DNA from: Escherichia coli
Lineage (GTDB): Bacteria; Pseudomonadota; Gammaproteobacteria; Enterobacterales; Enterobacteriaceae
Direction: 5' to 3' (one strand)
NCBI RefSeq assembly: GCF_003018255.1
Contig: NZ_CP027440.1
DNA length: 64,000 nt
Each line of letters begins with the position of its first letter. Positions within the stretch are counted from its first letter, which is position 1. The notes below the pieces were generated by a model that ran no database searches, was not told where the DNA came from, and saw only the letters and a program-made list of their open reading frames with translations. Position numbers and translations under genes: made by a program. Below are positions 3,023 through 14,839 of this stretch, piece by piece.

Positions 3023-4636
3023 ATGAAGCACTCTGTTTCAGTCACGTGTTGTGCGCTGTTGGTCAGCAGCATTTCTCTTTCGTATGCTGCTGAAGTTCCG
3101 AGCGGCACAGTACTGGCAGAGAAGCAGGAGCTGGTGCGCCACATTAAAGATGAGCCTGCGTCGCTGGATCCCGCTAAAGCCGTGGGCCTGCCAGAGATTC
3201 AGGTCATTCGCGATCTGTTTGAAGGACTGGTGAATCAGAACGAGAAAGGGGAGATTGTCCCCGGCGTTGCGACTCAGTGGAAAAGTAATGACAACCGTAT
3301 CTGGACTTTTACCCTGCGCGATAACGCAAAATGGGCGGATGGCACACCGGTAACGGCGCAAGATTTTGTCTACAGCTGGCAACGTCTGGTGGACCCAAAA
3401 ACATTGTCGCCATTTGCATGGTTTGCCGCGCTGGCGGGAATCAACAACGCACAGGCGATTATTGATGGTAAAGCCGCGCCTGACCAGCTTGGCGTCACCG
3501 CAGTTGATGCCCAAACTTTGAAAATCCAGCTTGATAAACCGTTGCCGTGGTTTGTGAATTTAACCGCTAACTTTGCCTTCTTCCCGGTGCAAAAAGCCAA
3601 CGTAGAAAGCAGTAAAGAGTGGACGAAACCCGGAAATCTGATCGGTAATGGCGCTTATGTTCTTAAAGAGCGCGTAGTCAATGAAAAACTGGTCGTGGTA
3701 CCGAATACCCATTATTGGGATAACGCCAAAACGGTGCTGCAAAAAGTGACCTTCCTGCCAATTAATCAGGAATCCGCAGCCACTAAGCGTTATCTCGCGG
3801 GGGATATTGATATCACCGAATCCTTCCCGAAAAATATGTATCAGAAGCTGTTGAAGGATATTCCGGGGCAGGTTTATACGCCGCCACAGCTCGGGACCTA
3901 TTATTATGCGTTTAACACGCAAAAAGGGCCGACGGCCGATCAGCGTGTTCGCCTGGCATTAAGTATGACGATAGATCGCCGCCTGATGACCGAAAAAGTG
4001 TTGGGAACGGGCGAAAAGCCAGCGTGGCATTTTACACCAGATGTTACTGCAGGATTTACGCCGGAACCTTCGCCGTTTGAACAAATGAGTCAGGAAGAAC
4101 TGAATGCGCAGGCAAAAACTTTGTTGAGCGCAGCTGGTTATGGTCCGCAAAAACCGCTGAAGCTGACGCTTTTGTATAACACTTCAGAAAACCATCAAAA
4201 AATTGCGATTGCTGTAGCATCAATGTGGAAAAAGAACCTTGGCGTAGATGTTAAATTGCAAAATCAGGAATGGAAAACCTATATCGATAGCCGTAACACC
4301 GGCAATTTTGATGTTATCCGAGCCTCGTGGGTAGGGGATTATAATGAACCCTCCACTTTCCTGACATTATTAACGTCAACGCATTCAGGAAATATTTCAC
4401 GCTTTAACAATCCGGTATACGACAAAGTACTGGCCCAGGCATCAACGGAAAATACCGTTAAAGCGCGTAATGCCGATTACAATACGGCAGAAAAAATCCT
4501 CATGGAGCAAGCACCGATTGCACCAATTTATCAATATACCAATGGACGATTAATCAAGCCGTGGCTGAAAGGTTATCCCATTAATAACCCGGAAGATGTG
4601 GCGTACAGTCGGACTATGTATATTGTGAAGCATTGA
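3023..4636 (+). CDS. mppA: periplasmic murein tripeptide-binding protein MppA
   Basis: ORF 3002..4636; start placed at MKHSVSVTCC (signal peptide), giving 537 aa; OppA-family substrate-binding protein. Confidence 0.9.
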   Translation: MKHSVSVTCCALLVSSISLSYAAEVPSGTVLAEKQELVRHIKDEPASLDPAKAVGLPEIQVIRDLFEGLVNQNEKGEIVPGVATQWKSNDNRIWTFTLRDNAKWADGTPVTAQDFVYSWQRLVDPKTLSPFAWFAALAGINNAQAIIDGKAAPDQLGVTAVDAQTLKIQLDKPLPWFVNLTANFAFFPVQKANVESSKEWTKPGNLIGNGAYVLKERVVNEKLVVVPNTHYWDNAKTVLQKVTFLPINQESAATKRYLAGDIDITESFPKNMYQKLLKDIPGQVYTPPQLGTYYYAFNTQKGPTADQRVRLALSMTIDRRLMTEKVLGTGEKPAWHFTPDVTAGFTPEPSPFEQMSQEELNAQAKTLLSAAGYGPQKPLKLTLLYNTSENHQKIAIAVASMWKKNLGVDVKLQNQEWKTYIDSRNTGNFDVIRASWVGDYNEPSTFLTLLTSTHSGNISRFNNPVYDKVLAQASTENTVKARNADYNTAEKILMEQAPIAPIYQYTNGRLIKPWLKGYPINNPEDVAYSRTMYIVKH

Positions 4637-5961: not shown

Positions 5962-6219
5962 ATGATTATGGCGAAACTGAAGTCAGCGAAAGGGAAGAAA
6001 TTTCTCTTTGGTTTGTTGGCGGTTTTCATTATTGCGGCGTCGGTTGTGACTCGCGCGACCATCGGCGGCGTGATAGAACAGTACAATATTCCGCTGTCTG
6101 AGTGGACGACATCAATGTATGTGATTCAGTCATCGATGATTTTTGTTTATAGCCTGGTCTTTACTGTGTTGCTGGCAATCCCGTTGGGAATTTATTTCCT
6201 TGGCGGCGAAGAGCAGTAA
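5962..6219 (+). CDS. ynaJ: small inner-membrane protein YnaJ (DUF2534)
   Basis: 85 aa ORF with two hydrophobic helices; no IS5 lies between ynaI and ynaJ here, unlike my recollection of K-12. Confidence 0.8.
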   Translation: MIMAKLKSAKGKKFLFGLLAVFIIAASVVTRATIGGVIEQYNIPLSEWTTSMYVIQSSMIFVYSLVFTVLLAIPLGIYFLGGEEQ

Positions 6220-6227
6220 GTAAAAAA

Positions 6228-6250
6228 TAGGCCCGATAACTCGGGCCTTG
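6228..6250. terminator. hairpin GGCCCGATAACTCGGGCC between the convergent ynaJ and uspE genes
   Basis: Perfect inverted repeat seen directly in the sequence immediately after both stop codons. Confidence 0.5.
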
Positions 6251-6268
6251 TCAGTTATTGAAGAGTCG

Positions 6269-7219
6269 TTAATCGTCTTCTTCGTCATCCAGTTCAACGG
6301 GTGTCTGATACTGGTCAGGTTTAATGACCAGCAGGTCGCAGCGAAGATGATCAATCACCTGTTCCGCCGTGTTACCAAGGAATGCTGCTGAAATACCGGT
6401 GCGTCCGACCGTGCCCAGAACCACAATCCCCGCCTGTAAGTGCTCCGCCAAATCAGGAATCACCTCTTCTGGCAGACCTTTTTCTACGTGCGTCATGTTT
6501 TCATTAATGCCGAATTTCTGCCGCAGGGCTTTCATTGCCAGCAAATGTTGCCCACGAATGGCATCGTTATAAACGCTCGGATCAAATTCCGGCAGTTCAA
6601 TCGCGATATTAATTGGCGTTACCGGATAAGCGCCAACCAGATGAACTTCGGTATGGTTGACTTGTTCCGCCAGTTCGATCGTCTCTTTGACCAGTTTTTC
6701 ATTGAGCGCATTATGATACGGCTCTTCACTGGCGAGATTCACCGCCACCAGCGCCTTACCCCCTTCCGGCCACGGCTGGTCTTTCACCATCCACACGGGG
6801 CTTGGGCATTTGCGTAACAGATGCCAGTCCGTTGGCGTAAAAATCACCGCTTCCAGACGGTCATGTTGGTGCGCCATTTTTAGCACCAAATCGTGCCCGC
6901 CGCTGATCACTTCCTGAATGATGGCTTCGAAAGGACGGTTATGCCAGACCACTTTAATTTCAATGGGAACGCCAGCATTGAGATAATATTTTGCCTGCTC
7001 GTGGATCCAGGCTGTACGCTGGCTGATGACGCCCTGACGCATAGCGGTACGTTCGTCCGGGGAGAGCAGGGTGGTCATTTCGTATGAGAAGTCATAGATC
7101 GGCAAAAAGGCTTTAATTTTGCCACCAATCCGTTGATGTAAATAAACAGCTCGCCGCAATGCTGGTTGGTCGTCCTGGTTAGGATCGATAACAACGAGCA
7201 TGTTCTGATACATAGCCAT
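6269..7219 (-). CDS. uspE: universal stress protein E (tandem Usp domains)
   Basis: ORF 6269..7246; start at [10 protein letters not shown] gives 316 aa; GGAGAC ribosome-binding site upstream. Confidence 0.9.
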
Positions 7220-7370
7220 ACAGGGTCTCCTTACAACAACTGTCAACGCAGTTTGTAATTAAAAGATTAACCCATATCTGGTGAATGAAACAGTGATGAA
7301 CCTTCTGCCAGATCAATAAATCAGAAAAATTTAATGATATGACAGAAGGATAGTGAGTTATGCGGAAAAA

Positions 7371-8123
7371 TCAGGCAACGTTACGCGTATGACCAGCAAG
7401 CTGGGCCAGCGCATCGTTATTTTCGATGGTGATGTATTTACCTTTGACTGCCAGCATACCGCTTTTCTGGAAGCGACCCAGCAGACGGCTGATGGTTTCT
7501 ACCGTCAGGCCCAGATAGTTACCAATATCGCCACGAGTCATCGTCAGGCGGAATTCACGAGGGGAGAAGCCGCGTTGGGCAAAACGACGGGACAGGTTGT
7601 AGATGAATGCAGCCAGACGTTCCTCGGCATTTTTCTTCGACAACAGCAGGATCATGTCCTGATCGCCTTTGATTTCACCGCTCATCAGACGCATCATCTG
7701 CTGACGCAGATTCGGCATTTTACCGGACAAATCGTCCAGCGTTTCGAACGGGATTTCACATACCATCGAGGTTTCCAGCGCCTGCGCGAAGCTCGGGTGA
7801 TGGCCGCTGCCGATGGCGTCAAATCCCACCAGGTCGCCTGCTAAATGGAAACCAGTGATTTGCTCGTCGCCTTGCTCAGTGATGGTATAACTTTTAATCG
7901 TACCGGAGCGGATGGCATAAAGCGATTTAAGTTCATCACCAGCCTTAAACAGCGTCTGGCCTTTCTGAATAGGCTTCTTCCGCTCAATGATATTATCAAG
8001 CTGATCAAGCTCATGTTCGTTGAGTGTGAACGGGATGCAAAGCTGGCTGATGCTGCAATCCTGGCAATGGATAGCACAACCGCCAGACTGAATGCGCCGT
8101 ATAATTCGCTTTTCCGGGATCAT
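7371..8123 (-). CDS. fnr: global anaerobic regulator FNR (CRP/FNR family)
   Basis: Start at [29 protein letters not shown], which holds the N-terminal Fe-S cysteine cluster; 250 aa; the longer ORF to 8180 is an upstream extension. Confidence 0.95.
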
Positions 8124-8142
8124 AGGTCTGCTCAAGCCGTAA

Positions 8143-8156
8143 TTGATATTTGTCAA
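8143..8156. promoter_or_regulatory. candidate FNR box (TTGAT-N4-GTCAA) in the fnr promoter region
   Basis: Near-palindromic TTGATATTTGTCAA 20-33 bp upstream of the fnr start; fnr is known to be autoregulated. Confidence 0.4.
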
Positions 8157-8317
8157 TTTTAACATCTTTTTAGGGAGCAAGTAAGTCTAAGCAAACCTTA
8201 ACAGCAGAGAATTCCGATATTAGATGTAAATATATGTCTATCTATTTGAAAACCCTTAAGTTGTTAAGGGTAACTTTACATAAAAGTGTGAACAAGCTGG
8301 CACAAATTGTTTAATGT

Positions 8318-8833
8318 TTACAGCAAAAGATAACCTTCGTGGCGCAATAACCACTCTTTTCGCTGAACTCCGCCTGCATATCCGGTCATGGTGCCGTTTC
8401 GGCCAATAACCCGATGGCAAGGTACAACAATGCTGATGGGATTCGATCCGTTAGCCGCACCAACGGCACGCGCCGCGCCTGGGCGGCCTAATTGTTCAGC
8501 CAGTTGGCCATAATGCATTACCTGCCCGCAGGGGATAGTGCGCAGTGTTTTCCAGACTTCGCGCTGAAATGGCGTCCCCCCCGTGGCAGTGGGAAGCGTA
8601 TCAATAATGCTAAGATTACCGGCAAAATATTCACGAAGCTTGTCGCTTAAACCACCTGGGTTGGTGGCAGAAATGCGCTCATAGCCTTCTTTGCGATAAT
8701 GGATGTCCAGCAGCTGCACCATGCGTTCGCTGTACTCTTCCCATTCAACCGCCCGCAGGCGAAATTGCTCATCGCAAATCACCCACAGTGGACCCAGTGG
8801 CGTGGCAATTTTTTCTTCAAGTAATCTCAGCAT
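8318..8833 (-). CDS. ogt: O6-alkylguanine-DNA alkyltransferase Ogt
   Basis: 171 aa ORF containing the PCHRV active-site motif; synteny downstream of fnr. Confidence 0.9.
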
Positions 8834-8843
8834 CCGTTCTCTC

Positions 8844-9047
8844 TTAAGACAAACGTGGGTAAATACCCGGACCTATCGGCAGACCGACAAGATACCACGC
8901 CAGCAACATCAGCAGCCATACCACCAAAAAGATAAGCGGATAGGGCAAGACTAACGAATAGTAAGTACCCAGTTTCGCGTCTGGTTTGTCGCAGTCTGAT
9001 AGCATAAAGCGATTTTTTGATTTTTCTGCCTGAAGAAATGAGGGCAA
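8844..9047 (-). CDS. hypothetical small hydrophobic ORF (67 aa) just upstream of ogt; possibly a remnant of the deleted abgT 3' end
   Basis: ORF ends 10 bp before the ogt start; hydrophobic C-terminal half; no clear ribosome-binding site evaluated. Confidence 0.25.
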
Positions 9048-9376
9048 GCCATCACATGGATCGAGGGTGGGATAATTCCAGTCAGCGAAATTTTACCGTA
9101 GGCTATCTGTTATTTGATTCTGTGGCGTGATAGCCGCCAGACACCACTGATCTCGTCACTCATTCCCCAATCCCGGCGAGAATGTGGTTATTTACAGAGC
9201 TAAAAAATGAATAAAAAAATAGAGCCTGTCGACATCCGCCAGACTCTACAGTACACACAGCAGTGCATCCTCGTCTTAAATCCGGCCTGGGGTCCTGGTG
9301 ACCGGTGACAGTGTTATAACGGTTTTACCCATCCGTTGCCAATTTTCTTCAGTGACAGATTTCACGAAAATATAAG

Positions 9377-10192
9377 TTAAATCATTTGCCTTGTGATTGC
9401 ATAATCATGCATCGTTAATCGACGAGTAAATTTACCGGGCGAGTAGCCCGTTCGACGCTTAAACATATTGCCGAACGATTCAGCTGAGGCATAGCCCAGA
9501 CGATGGGCAATTTTGGTCAACGAATATCCATCATCAAGAAGCGTCACTGCAGAAATAACGTGCATTTGCTGAACCCAGTGGCGAAATGTTAATCCCGTCT
9601 CTTTAACAAATAAGCGCATGAGTGTACGGCTACTGACGTTAATTTTATCCGCTAGATTATCCAGTGTTGGCAGATACCCTTGGTTGTTTAGCAAATTCTC
9701 ACAAAGCTGCTGTAGCCGCTCATCATTTGGCCAAGGGAGTTCAAGTGACATTTTCACCCCCATTTTTATTTCCTGAAGTATCAGTGTCTCGAGGGCTGAA
9801 AAACGTAACTGTTGTTTATCTGTGGTACTTTGCGACGGTGGAAGTTGGTTAATTGCAATTAGTAATTCTCTTAACAGGGGTGAAATACCCGTCATGAAGC
9901 AAACTTTTCCCAGCGTTTCACTTTCCGCTTCTGAAACCAGTACGGTTTTTAAAAGTACGTTGCCTGTCGCAACAAACTTATGCGGCATTTGTGGGGGCAG
10001 CCAAAGCGCGCTGCTGGCATGCACTAGCCAGACGCTTTCTCCAGCCCATAGACGAACGACTCCTTCAGCCGGGTAAAGCAACTGGGCATAGAGATGTTTA
10101 TGCCAGGGAACTGTGCCTCCATTCAGATGTTCCGAATCCAGTCCGATAATGTGATGCCCTGGTGATGCTTTGGGTTGCAGTGTGATTGTCAT
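9377..10192 (-). CDS. AraC/XylS-family transcriptional regulator (cupin N-domain plus C-terminal HTH)
   Basis: 271 aa ORF with C-terminal AraC-type HTH (KIAHRLGYASAESFGNMFKRRTGYSPGKF); divergent from the efflux genes. Confidence 0.8.
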   Translation of the reverse strand: MTITLQPKASPGHHIIGLDSEHLNGGTVPWHKHLYAQLLYPAEGVVRLWAGESVWLVHASSALWLPPQMPHKFVATGNVLLKTVLVSEAESETLGKVCFMTGISPLLRELLIAINQLPPSQSTTDKQQLRFSALETLILQEIKMGVKMSLELPWPNDERLQQLCENLLNNQGYLPTLDNLADKINVSSRTLMRLFVKETGLTFRHWVQQMHVISAVTLLDDGYSLTKIAHRLGYASAESFGNMFKRRTGYSPGKFTRRLTMHDYAITRQMI

Positions 10193-10288
10193 TTACAGTA
10201 GGTATTTTGTCAGAAATCATCAAATAAGCCATGTTAAATTTTAAATATGGCGAATGCAAGTTTCCGGATATATACGGTGTAAAGAGTG

Positions 10289-11317
10289 ATGATAATTTCT
10301 AAAAAACAGCTTATTGGGGTAGTAGCGATCGGTATTATTTTGGCTGGCGTTGTCTTTTTTATCTGGTGGGTAAGCAAAGGAAGATTTATACAGACGACGG
10401 ATGATGCTTACATTGGTGGTAATATTACCACGGTGGCAAGTAAAGTTTCTGGTTATATTTCTGCTATAGAGGTGCGTGATAATCAGAGCGTAAAAAAAGG
10501 CGATATTATCCTGCGTCTCGATGATCGGGATTATCGTGCAAATGTCGCCAGGCTTGAGGCAAAAATAAAAAGTAGAAAAGCCAATCTCGAAAGCATTCAA
10601 GCCACTATTACGATGCAGCAGTCGATAATTCAAAGTGCCAGTGAAACATGGCAGGCAGTAAAACATGAGGAGCAAAAGCGCCTGCGAGATACTGAACGTT
10701 ATGAAAAACTCGTACAATCAGCGGCAATATCGCAGCAAATTATTGATAACGCCAGGTTTGACTACCAGCAGGTCGCAGCAAAGGAGCGCAAAGCCGCGAA
10801 CGATTTCCTGGTGGAGAAGCAACGGCTGGCAGTTTTATCTGCTCAGGAAGAAAACGTACGTGCGAGTATCGAAGAAGTTCAGGCCGCTTTGACTCAGGCA
10901 CTACTGGATCTGGAATATACCCTTGTTCGTGCGCCGATTGATGGCATTGTCGCAAACCGCAGCGCCCATACAGGCAGTTGGGTGGAAGGCGGCACATCGT
11001 TAGTTTCACTTGTACCAGTCAGTGAGTTGTGGGTTGATGCAAATTATAAAGAAAACCAAATAGCGGGAATGAAGCCAGGAATGAAGGCTGAGATCCGTGC
11101 TGATATTCTCAAAGGGGAAGTGTTTCACGGTCACATTGAAAGCCTTTCCCCAGCGACAGGAGCCAGTTTCAGCTTGATTCCGATAGAAAATGCCACTGGC
11201 AATTTCACCAAAATTGTTCAGCGTGTCCCGGTACGGATTGCATTTGACGACGCAAAGGAATTAAAGCAACTTCTTCGCCCGGGACTGTCCGTCACCGTCA
11301 GTGTCGATGAGAGATGA
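10289..11317 (+). CDS. HlyD/EmrA-family membrane fusion protein (efflux pump periplasmic adaptor)
   Basis: 342 aa with an N-terminal TM anchor, coiled-coil middle and EmrA-like overall architecture; ATG at 10289 (a GTG at 10286 is an alternative). Confidence 0.8.
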   Translation: MIISKKQLIGVVAIGIILAGVVFFIWWVSKGRFIQTTDDAYIGGNITTVASKVSGYISAIEVRDNQSVKKGDIILRLDDRDYRANVARLEAKIKSRKANLESIQATITMQQSIIQSASETWQAVKHEEQKRLRDTERYEKLVQSAAISQQIIDNARFDYQQVAAKERKAANDFLVEKQRLAVLSAQEENVRASIEEVQAALTQALLDLEYTLVRAPIDGIVANRSAHTGSWVEGGTSLVSLVPVSELWVDANYKENQIAGMKPGMKAEIRADILKGEVFHGHIESLSPATGASFSLIPIENATGNFTKIVQRVPVRIAFDDAKELKQLLRPGLSVTVSVDER

Positions 11318-12828
11318 TGTCTATGCGTAAACATATTGCTTTCGCCAGTATGTGTATGGGATTATTTATTGCTCAGCTTGATATTCAAATTGTATCGTCA
11401 TCCCTAAATGAAATAGGTGGTGGTCTGTCCGCAGGTAAAGACGAAATGGCCTGGCTTCAGACCAGCTATTTAATTGCTGAGATTATTGTTATTCCGCTCT
11501 CTGGGTGGCTGTCACGGGTATTTTCCACTCGTTGGCTTTTTACTCTATCCGCGGGAATATTTACTTTAATGAGTATCGCGTGTGGACTTGCATGGAATAT
11601 TCAGATCATGATTTTGTTTCGTGCTTTACAGGGAGCGGCTGGCGCATCCATGATCCCTTTAGTTTTCACGACGGCGTTTATTTATTACCAGGGTAAAGAG
11701 TTGGGGTCGGCTGCTGCGGTAGTCAGTGCGCTGGCCTCACTGTCACCGACGCTAGGGCCAACTCTGGGGGGCTGGATCACTGATAACCTCGACTGGCGAT
11801 GGCTATTTTATATCAATATATTACCTGGCATATATTTAGTTTTGAGTATTCCTTTTCTGGTTAATTTTGATAAACCTGATCTCTCTTTACTGAAAGTTGC
11901 TGATTATCCGAGTATTATCCTGTTGGCCATGACACTGGGATGTCTGGAATATACCCTTGAAGAAGGAGCGCGCTGGGGATGGCTGGATGATAATACTATT
12001 TTGCTGACATCAGTTCTGGCATTGGTGAGTTTTATTTTATTTGCTGCGCGTACACTTACAATATCCAATCCGATAATGGATCTTCATGCTTTTAAGGATA
12101 AAAATTTCACGCTGGGATGTTTTTTTTCTTTTTCTGGAGGGGTTGGGATATTCTCTACTGTATATTTAATACTTGTGTTTTTGGGGCAGGTTCGCGGATT
12201 AAATGCCGAAGAGATAGGTTTTGCCGTTTGCACAACAGGTATTTTCCAGTTATTTTCTGTTCCCTTTTACTTCTGGTTAAGTAAAAAAATAAATCTGCGA
12301 TGGCTGTTGATGGCGGGGCTGGGTGGATTTGTGTTTTCAATGTATCTTTTTACCCCTATAACCCACGAATGGGGATGGCAGGAGTTACTGTTTCCACAGG
12401 CAATTAGAGGGATTTCGCAGCAGTTTGCGATGGCCCCCATCGTAACATTAACGCTGGGGGGAATTCCAAAGGAACGGCTGAAGTTAGCCTCTGGTGTATT
12501 TAATTTAACACGTAATCTTGGGGGCGCGATTGGTATTGCCCTGTGTGGCTCTATTCTCAATAATCGAACTAATTTTCATTTTTCGAGAATGGGTGAAAAA
12601 ATGGTTTCTGTTCCCCATACGGTGAATGACTTCATTTCCAGAAGTGCTTTGTTTTTTAATCGCAGTGGAAGTGACCAGACATCGGAAATACTGGCTTCAA
12701 CCAAATTATTGAGTCAGTTGATGCTGAGGGAGGCGCAAACTATGGCATTTTCGGATACCTTTCTGCTAATCAGTGGTCTGTTATTTATCGCATTTTTGTT
12801 GGTTCCTGCTATGAATAAATCATCCTGA
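11314..12828 (+). CDS. MFS efflux transporter, DHA2 (EmrB-like, 14-TMS) family
   Basis: 504 aa, highly hydrophobic, start overlaps the membrane-fusion gene stop by 4 bp (operon). Confidence 0.85.
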   Translation: MMSMRKHIAFASMCMGLFIAQLDIQIVSSSLNEIGGGLSAGKDEMAWLQTSYLIAEIIVIPLSGWLSRVFSTRWLFTLSAGIFTLMSIACGLAWNIQIMILFRALQGAAGASMIPLVFTTAFIYYQGKELGSAAAVVSALASLSPTLGPTLGGWITDNLDWRWLFYINILPGIYLVLSIPFLVNFDKPDLSLLKVADYPSIILLAMTLGCLEYTLEEGARWGWLDDNTILLTSVLALVSFILFAARTLTISNPIMDLHAFKDKNFTLGCFFSFSGGVGIFSTVYLILVFLGQVRGLNAEEIGFAVCTTGIFQLFSVPFYFWLSKKINLRWLLMAGLGGFVFSMYLFTPITHEWGWQELLFPQAIRGISQQFAMAPIVTLTLGGIPKERLKLASGVFNLTRNLGGAIGIALCGSILNNRTNFHFSRMGEKMVSVPHTVNDFISRSALFFNRSGSDQTSEILASTKLLSQLMLREAQTMAFSDTFLLISGLLFIAFLLVPAMNKSS

Positions 12829-13022
12829 TCGGAGCCTGTGCTGAATTAAACTCGGGCTAAACTGTTCGATACTGCTAACAGGCTAGTATAAAATGCCCCG
12901 CCTGCGCAGATACTCACAGGTATGAAGTAGAGTATTGTTTCAATCTGTGAAGGGAACGATGCAGTAAGAATGAACAATTAACCCGTCTGAATCACGACGT
13001 GTGAAGGTGCATAGGAGGTTAC

Positions 13023-13586
13023 ATGAACCTTGACGACAAATCGCTGTTTCTTGACGCCATGGAAGATGTCCAGCCGCTGAAACGTGCTACAGATGTCCAC
13101 TGGCATCCAACGCGTAACCAACGTGCGCCGCAGCGTATCGACACGCTGCAACTTGATAATTTCCTCACCACCGGATTTCTCGACATCATCCCGCTAAGTC
13201 AGCCGCTGGAGTTTCGGCGGGAAGGGTTGCAACATGGGGTGCTGGATAAGCTGCGCAGTGGTAAATATCCGCAACAGGCGAGCCTGAATCTTTTGCGCCA
13301 GCCGGTGGAAGAGTGCCGCAAAATGATGTTCAGTTTCATTCAACAAGCCATGGCGGATGGTTTGCGTAACGTGCTGATTATTCATGGTAAAGGGCGGGAT
13401 GATAAATCGCATGCCAATATTGTCCGCAGCTATGTGGCGCGCTGGCTGACCGAATTTGATGATGTTCAGGCATATTGCACCGCGCTACCGCATCATGGCG
13501 GCAGCGGGGCGTGTTACGTCGCACTACGTAAAACGGCGCAGGCGAAGCAAGAAAACTGGGAGCGCCACGCTAAGCGCAGCCGTTGA
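13023..13586 (+). CDS. smrA: Smr-domain DNA endonuclease SmrA (YdaL)
   Basis: 187 aa ORF with a C-terminal Smr domain; synteny before dgcM. Confidence 0.85.
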   Translation: MNLDDKSLFLDAMEDVQPLKRATDVHWHPTRNQRAPQRIDTLQLDNFLTTGFLDIIPLSQPLEFRREGLQHGVLDKLRSGKYPQQASLNLLRQPVEECRKMMFSFIQQAMADGLRNVLIIHGKGRDDKSHANIVRSYVARWLTEFDDVQAYCTALPHHGGSGACYVALRKTAQAKQENWERHAKRSR

Positions 13587-13606
13587 TCTCGAGACGCATC
13601 CGCGGC

Positions 13607-14839
13607 TTATGCCGCCAGCACGCGGTTGCGTCCATCATTTTTCGCCCGATACAAAGCATCATCAACGCGTTTAAACAGTTCATCGATGCTTTCATTTCCT
13701 TCGTGATGCGCCACACCAATGCTGACGGTAAAGCGTGGTAAGCCCGAAATACTCACTTTTGCCACGCTTACGCGGATAGTTTCAGCCAGCGAAAGCGCGG
13801 TATCCAGTGGGGTTCTTGGTAGCAATAAGACAAACTCTTCGCCTCCCCAACGAAACACCAAATCGCCTTTGCGAGCGCAACTTTCGAGGGTGCGGGCGAG
13901 GGCGCATAACACCTCATCACCTTTAGAATGCCCATAGAGATCGTTAATGTGTTTAAAACGATCGGTGTCGATGAGCAATAAGCTGTAATCCTGAGCGATG
14001 GCGAGGTGCTGCATTTGGCCTGGCTCGGTAATGTGATAAAACTGTCGCCGATTCAGTAATCCGGTCATCGCGTCATGGTGGGCAGCATGTTCCAGCTGCT
14101 CCTCCAGCCGTTTTTGCTCAGTAATATCATGCACAATACATAACATGAGCTTGTCGCCATAAATTTCAATCGGACCGGCATAGGTCTGCACATGACGAGT
14201 CGAACCATCCGCCAGTTTATGAACAAAATTCAAAGGCTTATGGCCACCGGGTAAATGCGAAATTTCATGCATGATAGGCATGACGCGTCGCCCGAGCATA
14301 TTTATTTCCCAAGTATGTTTCTGGCACATCGTTTCATGGTTATAGCCATAGAAATTGAGCGCGGCGAGGTTAGCATCGACGATTTGGCCATCTCGTGAGG
14401 GGTCAATCAACAACATTGGTGCAGAGTTAGTCAGAAAAAAGCGCGCATAAAAACCTTGTTTTTTGCGCTGATAATTTGCCGAGCGACTGGCTTTTAAACC
14501 CAGCGTTGCCGGTGCTTCGATACCTTCGAAAATAATCACCGGTTCTGCTTCTGTCAGCTTTCGCAAAACAAGCCGACAGCTCAATGCTGTTTCCTCTTCA
14601 TTGCGCTGAACGGTGAGGATTTCGATAATATCGTGTTGGTTTTGCAGATCGGAGAGGTATTCCGGCAGTTCTTTTTGTGAGGAGGCGGAATAGGGACCGG
14701 TTCGTAGCTGACTAAACGTGAGGTCTTGCATCAACAGTCGCGCCGCGCTGTTGGCATAAATTAACTGTTCCTCAAAGGGCGAAACGATCCAGACAGGACT
14801 GGTGAGTAAGTCCAGGGTATTGAAGTTGTGCGTAATCAT
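13607..14839 (-). CDS. dgcM: diguanylate cyclase DgcM (YdaM), PAS-GGDEF
   Basis: GGEEF motif present; start at MITHNFNTLDL gives 410 aa (the longest ORF extends to 14899). Confidence 0.85.
   Translation of the reverse strand: MITHNFNTLDLLTSPVWIVSPFEEQLIYANSAARLLMQDLTFSQLRTGPYSASSQKELPEYLSDLQNQHDIIEILTVQRNEEETALSCRLVLRKLTEAEPVIIFEGIEAPATLGLKASRSANYQRKKQGFYARFFLTNSAPMLLIDPSRDGQIVDANLAALNFYGYNHETMCQKHTWEINMLGRRVMPIMHEISHLPGGHKPLNFVHKLADGSTRHVQTYAGPIEIYGDKLMLCIVHDITEQKRLEEQLEHAAHHDAMTGLLNRRQFYHITEPGQMQHLAIAQDYSLLLIDTDRFKHINDLYGHSKGDEVLCALARTLESCARKGDLVFRWGGEEFVLLLPRTPLDTALSLAETIRVSVAKVSISGLPRFTVSIGVAHHEGNESIDELFKRVDDALYRAKNDGRNRVLAA

Follow-up and report, generated by a model that had tools for sequence, protein, structure and literature searches.

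Is the short open reading frame (ORF) that lies directly in front of ogt in this Escherichia coli genome a gene of its own, or is it what remains of a neighbour that has been lost? The question arises in a window of 64,000 nucleotides, by which we mean the whole stretch of DNA that was analysed. A sequence-only reading had described a hydrophobic ORF of 67 aa abutting the start of ogt and had offered two explanations for it. It could be a small membrane protein that is co-transcribed with ogt, or it could be the 3' remnant of the transporter gene abgT, left behind when the abg locus was replaced. Our answer is that the ORF arose incidentally from a deletion and is not a gene. The abgT DNA that was retained would be the promoter and leader of ogt, and transcription would start inside the ORF and yield the ogt mRNA. 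We put the probability of this reading at about 93%.

The open reading frame ends in the C-terminus of AbgT

The 67-codon ORF occupies 8844..9047 on the minus strand and runs from a TTG start to a TAA stop. Its codons 1-20 are antisense to a remnant of abgR and are followed by 47 codons for the C-terminus of AbgT. The TAA (8846-8844) is separated by a gap of 10 nt (GAGAGAACGG) from the ATG (8833-8831) of ogt, which lies on the same strand (8318..8833, minus) and encodes the O6-alkylguanine-DNA alkyltransferase of 171 aa. The ribosome-binding site of ogt sits within this gap. By the Kyte-Doolittle scale, residues 1-25 of the ORF are hydrophilic and residues 31-57 strongly hydrophobic; the 19-residue means peak at 2.66 (residues 38-56). 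Position, length, strand, the hydrophobic C-terminus and the distance of 10 bp to ogt had all been read correctly from the sequence.

The sequence-only reading had named a tblastn comparison with the C-terminus of AbgT as one check. In this comparison the last 47 residues of the ORF, which end in IYPRLS, are identical to residues 462-508 of K-12 AbgT (47/47, E=4e-25, window 8987..8847). At the level of DNA, 148 of the 149 bases of 8844-8992 match K-12. We therefore assign 8844..8989 on the minus strand as the 3' remnant of abgT, a pseudogene that keeps AbgT residues 462-508 and the stop codon and amounts to the last transmembrane helix. The explanation that invoked an abgT remnant was correct.

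The Pfam family PF03806 (ABG_transport) matches ORF residues 21-64 (E=8.7e-14, 51.1 bits at a cutoff of 27), and this coverage is partial, reaching from position 457 to 500 of a profile of 502. The fragment can also be aligned with the C-terminal helix of solved AbgT-family structures, namely with residues 473-515 of 522 in 4r1i and 453-492 of 492 in 4r0c. A full-length polytopic AbgT, with about 500 residues and the whole profile, is not encoded here, and the remainder of abgT is missing from the window. The family match is that of a gene fragment and not of a functional family member, because only profile positions 457-500 are covered and the rest of abgT is gone.

A 5,040-bp deletion joins abgT to abgR

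Comparison with the K-12 locus divides the surroundings of the ORF into three blocks. Window 8201-8992 corresponds to K-12 locus positions 1169-1960 at 98.1% identity and holds ogt and the last 149 bp of abgT. Window 8992-9412 corresponds to positions 7001-7422 at 81% identity and holds the 3' end of abgR together with McaS. Window 13013-13800 corresponds to positions 7534-8321 at 98.9% identity and holds smrA. The junction of abgT and abgR, a feature without strand, lies at 8988..8992 and shows a microhomology of 3-4 bp (TGT/ACA). Compared with K-12, 5,040 bp are missing at this point, comprising 1,378 bp of abgT, the entire abgB and abgA, and 695 bp of abgR. No coding sequence for AbgA or AbgB is left in the 64-kb window. 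The context of an abgABT operon with a divergent abgR has thereby been lost: the deletion took abgA, abgB and the operon promoter, it left a 3' stub of abgR, and what has been kept is the position beside ogt. The earlier wording, that the abg locus was replaced, is imprecise: the abg genes were lost by a simple deletion inside the locus, with its ends in abgT and abgR.

Codons 1-20 of the ORF cross the junction and read the abgR remnant on its antisense strand. Beyond the junction there is no stop in the abgT frame for 35 codons, and the TTG is the first start-type codon there. These features allow a proposal for how the ORF came about. In the ancestral order ogt, abgT, abgB and abgA would have followed one another in the same orientation, with abgR divergent beyond abgA, and 5,040 bp would have been lost between abgT codon 461 and abgR codon ~232. 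The ends would have been joined via the microhomology, and the last 47 abgT codons with their stop would have been left in front of ogt. The TTG in the antisense abgR stretch, as the first start-type codon, would then have created the ORF of 67 codons.

The deletion is widespread in the species. The allele spanning the junction is present in 1,169 of 5,426 complete E. coli genomes (about 21%), and in these genomes it removes the uptake and cleavage of p-aminobenzoyl-glutamate; ST131 and CFT073 are among them. The exact deletion, 5,040 bp at 8988-8992, is hereby documented. In the five alleles that were aligned (the window, ST131, CFT073, E10 and AREA_486) the junction is identical base for base. 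The other genomes that were read, nine alleles in all with the window included, show the same annotated remnants of abgT and abgR. The common base-for-base junction points to one ancestral deletion event. Recurrent independent deletions were considered and rejected, given the identical junction in the window and the four other aligned alleles; the only different event that was seen was mediated by IS1. Strain 14EC033 (NZ_CP024147.1; compared locus 6011-6988) carries an independent IS1-associated deletion that extends from abgT through smrA into dgcM. It keeps 69 bp of abgT, and its ogt promoter is cut at about -30 with both NarL sites gone.

Divergence of the abgR remnant

The 3' remnant of abgR, a gene for a LysR-family regulator, lies at 8992..9203 on the plus strand. 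It is frameshifted and has an internal stop, and its antisense strand supplies ORF codons 1-20. The remnant is 76-81% identical to the abgR genes of K-12 and ST2747, whereas the flanking DNA on both sides matches E. coli at 98-100%, and the divergence starts exactly at the junction. Within the last 44 codons of the remnant, synonymous differences amount to 0.44 (pS) and non-synonymous differences to 0.15 (pN), and the synonymous excess over random placement has a p of ~0.013. The excess of pS over pN suggests that much of the divergence built up while abgR was still functional, in a distant lineage, and not by decay. An origin of the deletion during the integration of a short foreign fragment, with one end homologous and the other illegitimate, would fit these data. 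The route would perhaps have been homology-facilitated illegitimate recombination.

Searches for the donor were made in a collection of genome contigs. A conserved 27-mer of abgR that is present in K-12 had 0 matches in this collection, from which Escherichia and Shigella are apparently absent. A search of the same contigs with the K-12 AbgR protein gave 35 loci, in Enterobacter, Lelliottia, Leclercia, Citrobacter, Klebsiella and others, with no Escherichia among them. None of the 35 loci is closer to the remnant than E. coli abgR (blastn of the remnant at E<=1e-3, no match to them). When the C-terminus conceptually encoded by the remnant was used as a protein query, only short fragments of this same remnant were returned and no donor.

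The AraC/HlyD/MFS block between McaS and smrA

McaS and smrA are separated by a block of genes for an AraC-family regulator (9377-10192, minus strand), a HlyD-family protein and a DHA2 MFS pump. It fills 9413-13012, where the K-12 equivalent measures 111 bp. It occurs in 1,457 of 5,426 complete E. coli genomes and is absent from K-12. The MFS gene is flagged by PGAP as frameshifted in the near-identical NZ_CP116067.1; the window has an ORF of 504 aa at 11314-12828. The 3' part of McaS and its terminator are near-identical to K-12, and the 5' part and the region upstream of it follow the haplotype of the island.

These genes were considered as a replacement of abg, and this was rejected. The block is located beyond the abgR remnant and McaS, and in ST2747 it is found together with an intact abgT-abgB-abgA/abgR. 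The abg deletion and the block are therefore separate polymorphisms, and the block has not taken the place of abg.

The ogt promoter within the abgT remnant

The NarL-dependent ogt promoter of E. coli K-12 was reportedly described by Squire et al. in 2009. In the K-12 promoter, which has been dissected experimentally, TATCTT is the -10 hexamer and is part of an extended -10 (Ruanto et al. 2020, PMC7419079). Two NarL sites of the 7-2-7 type, centred at -44.5 and -77.5, are both required for induction by nitrate, and the characterised sequence, which spans -105 to +1, carries the full NarL-dependent promoter (PMC7419079). Supplementary Fig. S3 of the same study prints NarL I as TACTTACTATTCGTTA, NarL II as TATCTTTTTGGTGGTA, further TGGTATCTT, and the +1 at the CT of GTCGGTCT (PMC7419079).

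All of these printed K-12 elements are unchanged in the window, at 8967-8881 on the minus strand. As judged by their match to the published sequence (PMC7419079; for NarL I its Supplementary Fig. S3), NarL I (centre -77.5) lies at 8952..8967, NarL II (centre -44.5) at 8919..8934 and the extended -10, TGgTATCTT, at 8889..8897, all on the minus strand. The -35 hexamer is probably TGGCTG at 8913..8918 (minus): a spacing of 18 bp from the -10 hexamer puts it there, and the p35T substitution (Supplementary Fig. S2, PMC7419079) by its name points the same way. The transcript start (+1) falls at 8881..8882 on the minus strand, within codon 56 of the ORF, and the 5' UTR from there to the ATG of ogt is ~49 nt long. 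Position -105 is window 8987, and the junction is at about -110. Within -105..+1 the sole difference from K-12 is at -55 (8937), a variant that is printed also for strains 55989, BL21 and Sakai (PMC7419079).

By its sequence, the retained 149 bp of abgT is the NarL-dependent ogt promoter together with the ogt leader. This promoter would be expected to work here as it does in K-12, with its dependence on nitrate and NarL included.

The end-point of the deletion

The role as ogt promoter may be the reason why these 149 bp stay near to K-12 after the loss of abgT. The need for the promoter would then have limited how far viable deletions could reach. The junction at about -110 is just beyond the -105..+1 fragment that bears the full NarL-dependent promoter. 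The abgT part of the scar is identical to K-12 in 148 of 149 positions, against 76-81% for the adjoining abgR part. Both observations speak against the alternative that the fragment is a neutral leftover of accidental length, with an end-point not shaped by the promoter and a conservation due to a recent origin or to recombination with strains whose abg is intact. This alternative can draw on the fact that all alleles have one junction, which leaves a single event to judge by. The strain with the IS1 deletion is viable with only 69 bp of abgT and a promoter cut near -30, and alleles of the CFT073 type tolerate the loss of 12 bp as well as changes within the NarL sites and near them. We regard a neutral leftover as unlikely, with odds of the order of one in several, and favour an end-point that may have been set by the promoter.

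Changes in the CFT073 locus (4011-4142) and in loci L005 and L006, equivalent to window 8935-8946 and 9060-9081, cluster within ~60 bp of the junction.

Expression of the open reading frame

The sequence-only reading had also considered a small membrane protein. Translation would have to begin at TTG 9047 or at the in-frame ATG 9005, and the product would be a single-pass membrane protein that re-uses the last AbgT helix, with the ORF co-transcribed with ogt or reached by read-through from McaS. Co-transcription with ogt fails at the transcript start. The ogt +1 is at codon 56, and therefore the ogt mRNA cannot encode the ORF. A promoter of its own is not apparent either, as a consensus scan of the minus strand found no sigma-70-like site between McaS and the ORF. 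The gene for the small RNA McaS/IsrA (9211..9306, minus strand; 112.8 bits at a gathering score of 42) has an intact terminator hairpin and U-run, and this terminator stands upstream of the ORF on the same strand, 160 nt away. Read-through of the terminator could nevertheless yield some transcript over the ORF. There is no Shine-Dalgarno sequence before TTG 9047 or before ATG 9005. The calculated pairing with the anti-Shine-Dalgarno sequence is -1.8 kcal/mol for the TTG and +1.9 for the ATG, compared with -5.4 for ogt and a window-wide background mean of -1.9.

Comparison of alleles gives a mixed picture. All 5 translated alleles have an open frame and retain the TTG, an observation that carries little weight with few substitutions over 200 nt. 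The 12-bp deletion of the CFT073-type allele is in frame, and the strongly hydrophobic segment of residues 31-57 would suit a membrane protein. Many database records call a protein here, and these calls are automatic; the current PGAP annotation is that of a pseudogene. ATG 9005 is lost in ST131 (ATG>ATA). Among alleles, the 20 novel codons differ by ~6 non-synonymous changes to 1 synonymous change in a small sample, and the variants found in databases include L>S, L>Q and L>P in the helix, which are of a helix-breaking kind in part, plus one stop loss. In this small sample of alleles there is no sign of purifying selection on the amino-acid sequence of the ORF.

From these features we infer that no protein is made from the ORF; a genuine translation product has, in our estimate, a chance of a few per cent. 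The small membrane protein of the sequence-only reading finds no support in the position of the ogt +1, the lack of a Shine-Dalgarno sequence at either start, the McaS terminator upstream and the allelic changes, which mostly alter the amino acid. Translation from TTG 9047 or ATG 9005 into a membrane protein by either route is thus very improbable. Slightly more improbable still is the specific case in which McaS read-through at a low level might let the chimeric frame be translated in genomes with the deletion allele. If this were true, 20 new residues and the last AbgT helix would form a single-pass membrane micro-protein, a young gene that arose from the scar of a pseudogene.

An origin of the ORF by chance, unrelated to abgT, deserves no credence. 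Non-coding frames of similar size abound in the window (the ORF list for 6500-12000 has numerous non-genic frames from 60 to 160 aa long), and a 67-codon open frame by itself is not beyond chance here, but the AbgT match of its last 47 residues is far beyond it (47/47, E=4e-25; Pfam E=8.7e-14), and the place beside ogt is conserved as in K-12.

Existing annotation

The feature is already known as an annotated pseudogene, and its DNA has already been characterised as the ogt promoter. In NZ_CP116067.1, which is identical to the window over the 543 bp queried, PGAP labels the equivalent of 8844-8987 as "AbgT family transporter; incomplete; missing N-terminus" (PID00_RS03010) and confines this pseudogene to the 144 AbgT-derived bp. 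The equivalent of 9008-9203 is annotated there as a frameshifted LysR pseudogene. The same pseudogene marking is found in ST131, CFT073 and other strains. Public protein collections contain the exact products of 67 aa and 53 aa under the names "pump protein", "AbgT family transporter, partial", c1809 (CFT073) and UTI89_C1607. The older protein calls ("pump protein", c1809, UTI89_C1607) are automatic and without experimental support. A literature search on the abgT/ogt locus, on McaS/abgR and on the tags c1809 and UTI89_C1607 found nothing on the ORF. What the DNA comparisons establish is the identity of the fragment, the junction and promoter elements that read base for base as in K-12. A false gene candidate is removed in this way, and the wider importance of this is slight.

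Comparison with known systems

The abgT pseudogene of PGAP, c1809, UTI89_C1607 and the "pump protein" are the same feature as the ORF under other names. One close reference is abgT of K-12, the gene of the p-aminobenzoyl-glutamate transporter. The remnant shares with it the last 47 codons and the stop, with identical protein and 148/149 matching DNA, and the same position directly upstream of ogt, 10 nt before the ogt ATG. The remnant keeps 47 of 508 residues (9%) and one helix, whereas the family structures have about 500 residues, and the window is without the N-terminal 461 codons, abgB, abgA and the abg promoter.

Another is the NarL-dependent ogt promoter of K-12. NarL I, NarL II, the -35 element, the extended -10 and the +1 are identical base for base, and the promoters are alike apart from -55, where the difference is a common polymorphism. 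They part at about -110, beyond which the window has the abgR remnant and K-12 has abgT coding sequence. The ogt promoter of CFT073, APEC O1 and E2348/69 (Supplementary Fig. S4, PMC7419079) has the same junction and the same remnants of abgT and abgR. Unlike the window, these alleles lack a further 12 bp between the two NarL sites and carry several substitutions within and near the sites; in our alignment CFT073, E10 and AREA_486 showed this further 12-bp deletion and several substitutions around the sites. The authors likened the allele of CFT073, APEC O1 and E2348/69 to their single-site ogt104167 promoter (PMC7419079). The promoter of the window is K-12-like and unmodified, unlike that of the CFT073/APEC O1/E2348/69 type.
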